64,000 bases of DNA. It comes from Escherichia phage JY01. Position numbers and translations under genes: made by a program. Below are positions 7,440 to 49,430 of the stretch, one piece after another. Positions within the stretch are counted from its first letter, which is position 1; each line of letters opens with the position of its first letter. The stretch lies in sequence record OR995200.1; one strand, given 5' to 3'. The notes under the pieces were generated by a model that had not been told where the DNA came from, did not search any database, and saw only the letters and a program-made list of their open reading frames with translations.

Positions 7440-8249
7440 ATGCTTAAAGAACAACTGATTGCCGAAGCGCAGAAAATTGATGCTTCCGTTGCTCTTGATA
7501 GTATTTTCGAATCAGTTAATATTTCTCCGGAAGCAAAAGAAACTTTCGGCACTGTATTCGAAGCTACCGTCAAGCAGCACGCCGTTAAATTAGCTGAATC
7601 TCATATCGCTAAAATTGCTGAAAAAGCAGAAGAAGAAGTAGAAAAAAATAAAGAAGAAGCAGAAGAAAAAGCTGAGAAGAAAATCGCTGAGCAAGCTTCT
7701 AAATTCCTTGACCATCTTGCAAAAGAATGGCTCACTGAAAATAAATTAGCAGTAGATAAAGGTATCAAAGCCGAACTGTTTGAATCCATGCTTGGTGGAT
7801 TGAAAGAGCTCTTCGTTGAACACAACGTTGTTGTTCCAGAAGAATCAGTTGATGTTGTAGCTGAAATGGAAGAAGAACTGCAAGAACACAAAGAAGAATC
7901 AGCTCGTCTGTTCGAAGAACTCAATAAGCGTGACGCATATATCAATTATGTGCAGCGTGAAGTGGCATTGAGCGAAAGTACTAAAGATCTGACTGAGTCT
8001 CAAAAAGAAAAAGTCTCTGCTCTGGTCGAAGGTATTGATTATTCAGATGCATTCTCAAGCAAATTGAGTGCCATCGTAGAAATGGTGAAGAAATCTAATA
8101 AAGATGAAAGCACTATTACTGAGAGTATAAATACTCCTGATACTGAAGCAGCCGGACTGAATTTCGTCACTGAAGCTGTAGAAGATAAATCTGCGCAAGG
8201 TGCAGAAGATATTGTAAGTGTATATGCGAAAGTCGCATCTCGTTTCTAA
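7440..8249 (+). CDS. 22: prohead core scaffold protein gp22
   Basis: 269 aa, highly charged, predicted coiled coil; late promoter upstream. Confidence 0.92.
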   Translation: MLKEQLIAEAQKIDASVALDSIFESVNISPEAKETFGTVFEATVKQHAVKLAESHIAKIAEKAEEEVEKNKEEAEEKAEKKIAEQASKFLDHLAKEWLTENKLAVDKGIKAELFESMLGGLKELFVEHNVVVPEESVDVVAEMEEELQEHKEESARLFEELNKRDAYINYVQREVALSESTKDLTESQKEKVSALVEGIDYSDAFSSKLSAIVEMVKKSNKDESTITESINTPDTEAAGLNFVTEAVEDKSAQGAEDIVSVYAKVASRF

Positions 8250-8267
8250 TTTTAAAGGTTAACACAA

Positions 8268-9833
8268 ATGACTATCAAAACTAAAGCTGAACTTTTGAAC
8301 AAATGGAAGCCATTACTGGAAGGTGAAGGTTTACCGGAAATTGCTAATAGCAAACAAGCGATTATCGCTAAAATCTTTGAAAACCAGGAAAAAGATTTCC
8401 AGACAGCTCCGGAATATAAAGACGAAAAAATTGCTCAGGCATTCGGTTCTTTCTTAACAGAAGCTGAAATCGGTGGTGACCACGGTTACAATGCTACCAA
8501 CATCGCTGCAGGTCAGACTTCTGGCGCAGTAACTCAGATTGGCCCAGCTGTTATGGGTATGGTACGTCGTGCTATTCCTAACCTGATTGCTTTCGATATT
8601 TGCGGTGTTCAGCCGATGAACAGCCCGACTGGTCAGGTATTCGCACTTCGTGCGGTATATGGTAAAGACCCAATCGCTTCCGGCGCTAAAGAAGCATTCC
8701 ACCCAATGTATGGTCCAGATGCAATGTTCTCTGGTCAGGGTGCTGCTAAGAAATTCGCTGCTTTGAAAGCAAGTGATACTCTTGAAGTTGGAACTATTTA
8801 CACCCACTTCTTCCAGGACACTGGTACTGTGTATCTGCAAGCTACAGAAGCTAAACAAATTGATTCAGGCGCATCTGACGCAGCTAAATTAGATGCTGAA
8901 ATTAAGAAACAAATGGAAGCAGGTGTACTGGTAGAAATCGCTGAAGGTATGGCTACTTCTATCGCTGAACTCCAGGAAGGTTTTAACGGTTCTACCGATA
9001 ACCCATGGAATGAAATGGGCTTCCGTATCGATAAGCAAGTTATCGAAGCTAAATCTCGTCAGCTGAAAGCTGCTTACTCTATTGAATTAGCACAAGACCT
9101 CCGCGCTGTTCATGGTATGGATGCTGATGCTGAACTGTCTGGTATTCTGGCTACCGAAATTATGCTGGAAATCAACCGCGAAGTTGTTGATTGGATTAAC
9201 TACTCCGCTCAGGTTGGTAAATCTGGTATGACCCTGACTCCGGGTTCTAAAGCTGGTGTATTCGACTTCCAGGACCCAATCGATATTCGTGGTGCTCGCT
9301 GGGCGGGTGAATCCTTTAAAGCTCTGTTGTTCCAGATTGACAAAGAAGCAGTTGAAATTGCTCGTCAAACCGGTCGTGGTGAAGGTAACTTCATTATCGC
9401 TTCCCGTAACGTAGTTAACGTTCTGGCTTCAGTTGATACCGGCATTTCTTATGCTGCACAAGGTCTGGCTACCGGCTTTAACACTGATACTACCAAGTCA
9501 GTATTTGCTGGTGTTCTGGGTGGTAAATACCGTGTATATATCGACCAGTATGCTAAACAGGATTATTTCACTGTAGGTTATAAAGGTCCGAACGAAATGG
9601 ATGCTGGTATTTACTACGCTCCATATGTAGCTCTGACTCCACTGCGTGGTTCTGATCCGAAGAACTTCCAACCGGTAATGGGGTTCAAAACTCGTTACGG
9701 TATCGGTATCAACCCATTTGCAGAATCCGCTGCTCAGGCTCCGGCTTCTCGCATTCAGAGTGGTATGCCTTCTATCCTGAACAGCCTTGGTAAGAACGCT
9801 TACTTCCGCCGTGTATATGTTAAAGGTATCTAA
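8268..9833 (+). CDS. 23: major capsid protein gp23
   Basis: 521 aa, T4 gp23 length; high-expression codon usage; terminator hairpin downstream. Confidence 0.96.
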   Translation: MTIKTKAELLNKWKPLLEGEGLPEIANSKQAIIAKIFENQEKDFQTAPEYKDEKIAQAFGSFLTEAEIGGDHGYNATNIAAGQTSGAVTQIGPAVMGMVRRAIPNLIAFDICGVQPMNSPTGQVFALRAVYGKDPIASGAKEAFHPMYGPDAMFSGQGAAKKFAALKASDTLEVGTIYTHFFQDTGTVYLQATEAKQIDSGASDAAKLDAEIKKQMEAGVLVEIAEGMATSIAELQEGFNGSTDNPWNEMGFRIDKQVIEAKSRQLKAAYSIELAQDLRAVHGMDADAELSGILATEIMLEINREVVDWINYSAQVGKSGMTLTPGSKAGVFDFQDPIDIRGARWAGESFKALLFQIDKEAVEIARQTGRGEGNFIIASRNVVNVLASVDTGISYAAQGLATGFNTDTTKSVFAGVLGGKYRVYIDQYAKQDYFTVGYKGPNEMDAGIYYAPYVALTPLRGSDPKNFQPVMGFKTRYGIGINPFAESAAQAPASRIQSGMPSILNSLGKNAYFRRVYVKGI

Positions 9834-46973: not shown

Positions 46974-47834
46974 TTACACCGCCATCTTTCCTTTAATAGG
47001 AGGATGTGATTCATAGTTGTTAAGAACAAAATTATGAGGCTTTGCAAATTGACTCAACCAAAATACCTGCGATTCTGTGTCCCATTCATCAAATTCATCT
47101 GGAAATTTTAATTGTAATTCGCATAAATCCATAGGTTCACGACATAAAATTTCTTTACATTGTTCTACGTGATTCATATAGATATGAGTATTACCACCAG
47201 AAAATATCAAATCTCCCGGAATAAGATTACACATCTTAGCTACAATATGAACTAACGTAGCATATGATGCAATATTAAATGGAAGACCGAGGAAAACATC
47301 TACCGAACGTTGATACCATTGAAGGTCAAGGTATCCATTACGCACATTAAACTGATAGAACATATGACAAGGCGGTAATGCCATATATTTAAGTTCAGCT
47401 GGATTCCACGCAGAAACAATTTGACGCCTATCATTTGGCAGTTTTTTAATACGATCAATAACTTCTATAATTTGATCTACACCGCCAAAATCACGCCACT
47501 GTTTTCCATAAATTGGACCAAGTTCACCGCTATGGTATCCTAAATCTTTTGCTTGATTTTCGTAATTTTCATCCCAGACTGTTTTGCCTTGAATTAATGA
47601 ATCATGTTGAATTAATCGCAAATCATTGACATTTGTGCTTCCTGATAAAAACCATATTAGCTCAGCAATGCATGCATTCCAGGCGAGCTTTTTAGTTGTT
47701 ACTGCAGGAAAACCTTTGGTTAAATCCCAACGCAATTTAGTACCGAACAAAGCAATTGTTCCTGTGCCCGTTCGGTCATCGGTTTCATAGCCATTTTCAA
47801 AAATGTCTTTAATTAAATCTTGGTATTGTTTCAT
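46974..47834 (-). CDS. td: thymidylate synthase
   Basis: 286-aa uninterrupted ORF; active-site region PPCH; no intron. Confidence 0.95.
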
Positions 47835-47879
47835 TTAGTACCTTATATAAATTATAATACATTTTATGAAGCTAAATAA

Positions 47880-48239
47880 TCAATACGGTTTAGCATCAAA
47901 TTTTCTCTCAATTTCAGGCGTGAAATATAATTCTTTACCGCGTTTGGAAAAGCGACCAATAATATGATAATTATTCTCATCAAACGTGATATTACCAATA
48001 TCCATAGCTTTCAACCAAATATCGATATTTCTATCCAGCTTTATGTCAAAATTCCAATACGGAGAACTATTACCGAAAATACTACAAGCGGATTCAGTGA
48101 AACAACTGCTATAAATCTTGTCTTTAGGAACTACTAATTGATAAACACCTTTAATAAACTGAGGACCTTGCCATTTTGGCTGTTTCGCGTCTTCTTCTAA
48201 TAGAATAGGGTAATAATTAAAATTCATATTTTCCGCCAC
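47880..48239 (-). CDS. hypothetical protein, 119 aa, between frd and td
   Basis: ORF fills a ~0.4 kb gap where, from memory, T4 frd and td overlap directly. Confidence 0.55.
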   Translation of the reverse strand: MAENMNFNYYPILLEEDAKQPKWQGPQFIKGVYQLVVPKDKIYSSCFTESACSIFGNSSPYWNFDIKLDRNIDIWLKAMDIGNITFDENNYHIIGRFSKRGKELYFTPEIERKFDAKPY

Positions 48240-48247
48240 GCGTTATT

Positions 48248-49070
<823 letters not shown>

Positions 49071-49086
<16 letters not shown>

Positions 49087-49430
49087 TGAAAGGGGCCAGA
49101 AGCAAATCCGCTATCTTTAATCATTTTAACTAAAGTTACCATTCCTCTGTTAACTGCTTGCGAGATTTCATCAAAAACTTCATCACTATCACCATAAAGA
49201 TCGCTAAAAAGTTCTAACACGTTCTTCTGAACTTTTAATTTACAGCCAACAAATTCGCCTACAGTAAATTCGTTTCCGCCAACTCCAGCGTAAAACGTAA
49301 TTACACCAGTTAATGGTCTTTCACTAGAACATAGGTCGTGTGATAAATTAATATAAGCCGTCCCGGGTGCAGTTTTAAGTTGGCAACGAATACTTACTCG
49401 AGCAATTCCAGCTACACGAATGTCAGACAT
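49071..49430 (-). CDS. hypothetical protein (frd.2-like)
   Basis: 119-aa ORF. Confidence 0.55.

Follow-up and report, generated by a model that had tools for sequence, protein, structure and literature searches.

What do T-even phages keep between the genes for dihydrofolate reductase (frd) and thymidylate synthase (td), and why do they differ in it? The question is raised by a stretch of 64,000 nucleotides from Escherichia phage JY01 (sequence record OR995200.1; the whole stretch is called the window hereafter), in which the td start and the frd stop are separated by 413 bp (47835-48247), with all genes of the locus on the minus strand. An earlier note, made from the letters alone, had seen an open reading frame (ORF) of 119 amino acids (aa) in this gap, and had read it as an insertion of mobile or accessory cargo into a junction at which, in T4, the two genes overlap. 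Our analysis confirms the observation, while the interpretation is partly right. The ORF, here called gene X, is very probably a real gene and the frd/td junction a recombination hotspot; the whole is best explained, albeit tentatively, by X belonging to the frd-td-nrdAB cluster of nucleotide-precursor genes as a true accessory gene that the phages can do without.

The single sizeable ORF within the gap is located at 47880-48239 on the minus strand and comprises 119 aa if counted from a GTG (MAENMNFNYY...), while plus-strand ORFs across the same interval span 33-57 aa. However, an ATG at 48227 is preceded by GGCGG with a 5-nt spacer, coincides with the start of the 348-nt coding sequence annotated in phages T2, T6, G8 and PHB12, and agrees with the N-termini of the homologues (MNFNYY). 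Judged by these signals, the true start of X is likely this ATG, giving a protein of 115 aa, and the GTG extension (Table 1) is probably not translated.

The overlap given for T4 is correct: in the T4 genome (NC_000866) td ends at 145112 and frd starts at 145109, i.e. frd stop and td start share 4 nt as ATGA, with no interval and no such ORF between them, so that the condition which the earlier note had named for its own refutation does not hold. The window differs from T4 by a 417-bp indel, with an exact 9-bp direct repeat, TAAATGAAA, at each boundary. The repeat consists of the stop/start overlap itself. Extended to 12 nt, the left copy TAAATGAAAtAA and the right copy TAAATGAAAcAA are identical at 11/12 positions with a spacing of 417 in the repeat search, and the left copy forms a two-codon mini-ORF, ATG AAA TAA, at the frd end, which mirrors the ATG AAA CAA of td. 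When one repeat and the intervening 408 bp were deleted in silico, the T4 junction was restored exactly over a 70-mer. Repeated 9-mers are common enough in such AT-rich sequence (5 here versus 2.4 after shuffling) that the repeat is informative only by its placement at the two ends of the indel.

Evidence that X is a functional gene is given by its substitution pattern among seven X-carrying Tequatroviruses, i.e. the window, G8, T2, T6 and three IMG/VR contigs. The ratio of non-synonymous to synonymous substitution rates (dN/dS) was 0.02 for X (mean dS 0.167, mean dN 0.0032), compared with 0.07 for frd (0.156 and 0.0114) and 0.08 for td exon 1 (0.517 and 0.0408), most pairs of X sequences differing by 4-17 synonymous and 0-2 non-synonymous changes. 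By this measure, X is functional, under very strong purifying selection and under stronger amino-acid constraint than its enzyme neighbours. Moreover, X is as diverse as frd at synonymous sites and hence did not enter this group recently. Elsewhere, X shows 26-45 % identity in most lineages, versus 42-54 % for Frd and 69-78 % for Td.

The protein is already known to the databases as a member of an ORF family and is thus not new. By its match to the PHROG 1928 profile (E 9.3e-36, residues 8-115 on profile positions 2-125 of 126), X is an ordinary member of this uncharacterised family, and it is 99-100 % identical to proteins annotated in T2, T6, NBG2 and many other phages, T2 (EcT2_00240) and T6 (note 'RB32ORF229c') listing it as a hypothetical protein. 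A literature search found no paper on the X ORF or on a frd/td intergenic gene. With a 701-bp query covering the junction, 536 phage records were matched, 354 of which contain the whole X segment, and tblastn with the X protein returned 362 records at ≥90 % protein identity, with 100 % in NBG2 and MLP2.

Three states of the frd/td junction were found in Tequatrovirus when 60 evenly spaced rows were taken from the 536 records: it contains X, it contains an unrelated gene Z, or it is empty. X is the majority state among T4 relatives and not the exception, a point on which the earlier interpretation needs correcting; the empty T4-type junction (284-bp span) was found in 4/60 rows, i.e. around 7 %, and the Z-type junction (490-bp span) in 11/60 rows as well as in EcNP1. 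T2 and T6 carry X, while the junction is empty in T4, and the empty ATGA junction is also found outside the genus in RB69 (Mosigvirus) and SP18 (Gaprivervirus). Z is an ORF of 68 aa (MSNKLKVKDVPNAMALF...) which belongs to PHROG 9550, starts at the ATG of frd's ATGA, ends with TAATG into td, and is present at ≥95 % identity in about 134 records. JS98 (Dhakavirus, NC_010105) carries Z at 8212-8418 on the minus strand, although its RefSeq record leaves it unannotated, and D5505 (locus L027) carries it at 750-956. Relatives of Z with about 42 % identity also occur in phAPEC8-like phages of about 150 kb.

Mosigvirus PHB12 (locus L029, 1069-2897) illustrates how such states may be exchanged. Its locus is chimeric: the 3' end of frd and X are Tequatrovirus-like, with 92-98 % identity to the window, while its td is 94-100 % identical to that of RB69 and the X-td spacer measures just 15 nt. 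Such cross-genus transfer appears as an island of 98 % identity within flanks of 78 %. On this pattern of identities, recombination in the frd and td sequence on either side moves the junction fillings from phage to phage, even between genera. The accessory-cargo part of the earlier interpretation therefore stood, the junction being a hotspot with X, Z or nothing as exchangeable states. As for td itself, residues 184-286 of the window Td are 73 % identical to T4 exon 2 and 95 % to T6, and exon 1 falls into two deep haplotypes of about 84 % nucleotide identity among X-carrying phages, which makes td strongly mosaic.

Regarding X as a foreign insertion, on the other hand, is at odds with its occurrence elsewhere. 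In 20/20 loci examined, comprising Tequatrovirus, at least five other named genera and unnamed contigs, a homologue with 26-66 % identity immediately follows frd and precedes td in the same orientation. X has thus long resided in this slot across T4-like phages. Those at 26-45 % include PEi20 (Kanagawavirus), S16 (Gelderlandvirus), Klebsiella phage Mexia, Merlin-type and CHI14-type phages and others, those at 63-66 % come from two metagenomic T4-like contigs (L007 and L008), and X-bearing Mosigvirus is also among the named loci. In PEi20, Mexia, S16, L007 and L008, the start of X lies right against the frd stop or overlaps with it. In many of these phages X is followed by a second ORF, Y, which is a paralogue of X by hhalign (probability 98.8 %, E 4.6e-17), also matches PHROG 1928 and has about 19 aa inserted into the loop that follows its KQKKW motif; in the CHI14-type loci L022 and L024, tblastn likewise detected a further segment resembling X, the X+Y tandem spanning 2992-3688 in L022 and 4001-4879 in L007. 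The latter contig even harbours a complete frd-X-Y-Z-td array, so that the Tequatrovirus alleles X and Z each match one member of an array found intact elsewhere. A profile search of all ORFs of the window revealed no second member of the X family there.

Outside T4-like phages, no relatives of X were found. An exhaustive HMMER search of 1.84 billion representatives yielded 23 clusters, about 21 of them true, all of 95-119 aa and without fused domains; two (P0021 and P0023) were discarded as repetitive eukaryotic sequences. A word-indexed homology search gave three clusters only.

The distribution allows two histories, and both an insertion of X and its loss may have happened. The X allele may have arisen by insertion into a T4-like junction, considering that the ATGA-coupled frd end (VYK-TGA) is common to four sister genera, that the left repeat resembles a decayed copy of the first three codons of td, that the X tree is incongruent with its flanks, and that X of the window is uncoupled from frd, contrary to other genera. 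Alternatively, T4 may have lost X by deletion between the 9-bp repeats, short direct repeats being a known deletion substrate in T4. Pointing towards loss, many genera have the X family as a native occupant of the frd/td slot, the age of X equals that of the frd diversity within Tequatrovirus, X is the majority state, and deletions ending at AATGA motifs in an X-Y-Z array could give all three alleles. Comparison of the frd 3' end with PEi20 or L008 gave three different short alignments, each suggestive and all mutually conflicting.

What kind of protein is X? It has a mass of 13.6 kDa and an isoelectric point (pI) of 6.6, within a family range of 6.6-9.4. Only Q16, W19, G27, G91, K95 and G97 are invariant in the family, with L9, Y29, N79, F93 and F102 nearly so, and the motifs LLExDxKQxKW, HG(I/V)Y and IIGRFxKxGxxxxFxP are shared with the paralogue Y. 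The family alignment contains no invariant acidic, histidine or cysteine position, which argues against catalysis, while the invariant residues fall into the KQxKW loop and the GRFxKxG hairpin, so that X most likely acts by binding. An AlphaFold2 model built with a 24-sequence alignment was confident, with a predicted local distance difference test score of 90.7 and a predicted template modelling score of 0.83. DSSP assigned strands (E) and a helix (H) to the model as E6-12, E27-34, E62-64, H68-77, E80-82, E86-96 and E99-104. The predicted order of elements, b1-b2-b3-helix-b4-b5, fits that of the OB fold. However, the model showed no significant superposition on solved OB domains and no significant structural relative. 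We therefore describe the predicted fold as a small OB-like rather than an OB beta-barrel. Structure searches of BFVD returned uncharacterised proteins of T4-like phages only, scans of X against Pfam, NCBIfam and PADLOC returned nothing, a Pfam scan of 24 family members gave scattered chance matches only, and the matches of both X and the family profile to PDB sequences stayed at chance level. Taken together, conservation and model make X probably a non-catalytic binder.

As to what it binds, X lies within, and is co-oriented with, the nucleotide-precursor gene cluster, here and in 20/20 loci. The T4-type synthetase complex for deoxynucleoside triphosphates (dNTPs) comprises Frd, Td, NrdAB, gp42 and others. 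Since X and Y occur nowhere but downstream of frd and upstream of td, mostly with stop and start codons that overlap, it is tempting to guess that X would be produced together with Frd and Td, would bind these enzymes or their nucleic-acid surroundings, and would thereby serve as a non-essential adaptor of the phage machinery for thymidylate and dNTP synthesis. We regard such a functional link to Frd and Td as doubtful, even though X as an accessory gene of the cluster is our preferred explanation overall. Several points weigh against it. X is missing from T4, RB69 and SP18, and the unrelated Z takes its place in JS98 and many Tequatroviruses, so that Frd and Td do not need X. The strict synteny could perhaps be due just to vertical inheritance in a conserved operon, while a gene that is variably present at a recombination hotspot resembles a host-interaction gene more than a metabolic partner. 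In the window, X is separated from frd by a 20-nt gap and has its own Shine-Dalgarno sequence, i.e. it is translationally uncoupled from frd. Finally, the literature search found no paper or experiment on X function.

The strongest competitor, which we nevertheless consider rather unlikely, is that X is a host-interaction or anti-defence protein which inhibits or evades a host factor, the junction merely tolerating cargo. This would fit the presence/absence and allele replacement among three junction states, the movement of cargo between genera, and the dispensability of X in T4 and RB69, as well as a small protein with no enzyme motif and no relatives beyond T4-like phages. Its sequence is tightly kept within the genus and diverges to 26-45 % elsewhere (63-66 % in L007 and L008), as expected for co-evolution with a lineage-specific partner. 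However, with a dN/dS of 0.02 there is no sign of an arms race within Tequatrovirus, the family was never found at another locus among the 20 examined, and X matches none of the PADLOC models, which describe defence rather than anti-defence systems.

Less likely still, X could be a small OB-type binder of single-stranded DNA (ssDNA) or RNA, acting, for example, on the translation or stability of the frd-td-nrd mRNA or as an ssDNA-associated factor near the replication fork. Its strands are predicted in an OB-like order, and most of its weak structural neighbours are OB domains that bind ssDNA or RNA; the conserved W19, Y29, F93 and K95 (together with R92 in most members) lie in the predicted L12 loop, b2 and the b4-b5 hairpin, and most family members are mildly basic. 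With the same predicted element order over about 100 aa, X recalls small OB modules such as the RPA14/RPA32 core, Stn1-Ten1, RMI1-RMI2, S1 and cold-shock domains and SSB, which likewise have conserved aromatic and basic loop residues, and the X+Y tandem recalls heterodimeric OB pairs. On the other hand, many of the OB matches (RPA14, Ten1, RMI2) are protein-protein modules, X of the window is near neutral (pI 6.6), and no conserved RNA element was detectable adjoining X.

Some GenBank records label X as a homing endonuclease, but a free-standing enzyme of this kind, or any other self-mobile element, is very improbable. Sporadic distribution, placement at a conserved gene junction, the 9-12-bp direct repeat flanking the indel and the label 'putative homing endonuclease' in the records of KarlGJung, TadeuszReichstein and ValerieMcCarty04 would be compatible with such an element. 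The free-standing homing endonucleases of T-even phages (seg, mob, I-TevI) are likewise located within or between conserved genes of nucleotide metabolism, and they differ among T2, T4 and T6; at this very locus I-TevI resides in the td intron of T4 and T6, with mobE and segG nearby in T4, while td of the window is one unbroken ORF without intron. However, GIY-YIG, HNH, LAGLIDADG and PD-(D/E)xK domains are absent from 24/24 family members (Pfam, E ≤1), and in agreement with the earlier note's failure to see a GIY-YIG or HNH motif, neither the family alignment, which lacks any invariant acidic, histidine or cysteine residue, nor the predicted fold, which does not match nucleases, gives any hint of one. 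At 115 aa, X is also shorter than the known seg and mob enzymes. Unlike these, it has neither a nuclease domain nor catalytic residues nor a nuclease fold, and spreads passively through the homology of its flanks. The indel contains no terminal inverted repeats inside its ends and no transposase, and X brings no mobility machinery of its own. A transposon of the insertion sequence or miniature inverted-repeat type was rejected, as a direct repeat is present but no end-to-end inverted repeat, and X is the sole ORF. The labels homing endonuclease, DHFR and GlgC of some GenBank records were likewise discarded for want of any supporting similarity.

Another parallel is offered by the accessory-gene cassettes of hyperplastic regions (morons in the broad sense), whose cargo also varies between collinear genomes, with unrelated ORFs in the same slot and cross-genus transfer. 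Unlike such cassettes, the X family keeps to one and the same slot in many genera and has no clear promoter or terminator of its own, and the boundaries of the X indel coincide with the stop/start overlap motif.

Weakest of all, and hardly credible, is a non-functional leftover or chance ORF in a spacer: T4 manages without X and X has no known domain, but the substitution pattern refutes this reading, X is kept across genera down to 26 % identity at equal length, and its model is confident.

The features of the locus are listed in Table 1.

Table 1. Features of the frd-td locus in the window (nt, nucleotides; aa, amino acids)
Feature	Position	Strand	Remarks
frd, dihydrofolate reductase	48248-48829	-	193 aa from MIKLVF, ends VYK-TGA; Pfam DHFR_1, E 4.3e-19
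frd stop TGA	48250-48248	-	
Left repeat copy TAAATGAAAtAA	48243-48254	-	12 nt; contains frd TGA; exact 9-mer at 48246-48254
In-frame extension of X to GTG	48228-48239	-	gives the mechanical 119-aa ORF; overlaps Shine-Dalgarno-like GGCGGA (48237-48232)
Gene X coding sequence	47880-48227	-	115 aa, MNFNYYPILLEEDAKQPKW...DAKPY; 348 nt, stop included; PHROG 1928
X-td spacer	47835-47879	-	45 nt; read from sequence
MotA-box-like AGCTTCA	47873-47867	-	in X-td spacer, 10 nt upstream of TATAAT
Perfect -10-like TATAAT	47856-47851	-	in X-td spacer
Shine-Dalgarno AAGG for td	47844-47841	-	in X-td spacer
Right repeat copy TAAATGAAAcAA	47826-47837	-	contains td start codon; exact 9-mer at 47829-47837
td start ATG	47834-47832	-	
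td, thymidylate synthase, intronless	46974-47834	-	286 aa; Pfam Thymidylat_synt, E 3.9e-94, residues 2-286

The motifs in the X-td spacer may represent a candidate td promoter which the T4 arrangement lacks. A promoter scan gave one match in this spacer, while the total for the region (9 versus 11.2 in shuffled sequences) was not above expectation, and the promoter-like 30 nt are missing in PHB12, so that a promoter function of the spacer is putative only. No terminator was found after X, and an Rfam scan of the region returned no family, with sub-threshold hits to eukaryotic families only.

Upstream of X, Frd of the window is 98 % identical to that of T4. The longest frd ORF begins 27 nt further upstream (48830-48856, minus strand, MVYRKRICV...), while the homologous start MIKLVF is at 48829, its first base overlapping the end of the upstream ORF at 48829-49086. 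The latter (minus strand, 85 aa) and another ORF at 49071-49430 (minus strand, 119 aa) lie between frd.1 and frd. Neither has a counterpart at the T4 locus, whereas T6 has the pair and T2 the first of them; this patch of two ORFs is thus another T4-absent stretch adjoining the X locus.

In protozoa and plants, the bifunctional dihydrofolate reductase-thymidylate synthase (DHFR-TS) is a polypeptide in which a junction segment is encoded after the DHFR part and before the TS part. By analogy only, X occupies a comparable position, and X/Y are translationally coupled to both genes in several phage genera; unlike the DHFR-TS junction, X is a separate and dispensable protein. It is tempting to speculate that PHROG 1928 (X and Y) is a hitherto unrecognised OB-like family which physically couples Frd and Td or anchors the two enzymes at the fork via ssDNA or gp32, or else a new anti-defence protein, an idea we hold to be improbable. 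If the coupling were true, X would be the stand-alone counterpart of the DHFR-TS junction; if the anti-defence role were true, X would explain differences in host range between T2/T6 and T4. No current view is overturned by X. Regardless, few genes of this otherwise collinear and heavily studied cluster are present in T2 and T6 but missing from T4, and X is one of them; its amino-acid conservation, tighter than that of the neighbouring enzymes, makes it a clean candidate for deletion and add-back. The locus illustrates the swapping of small ORFs among T-even phages, i.e. by whole-gene indels which end on the stop/start overlap and are carried from genus to genus by the homology of the flanks.
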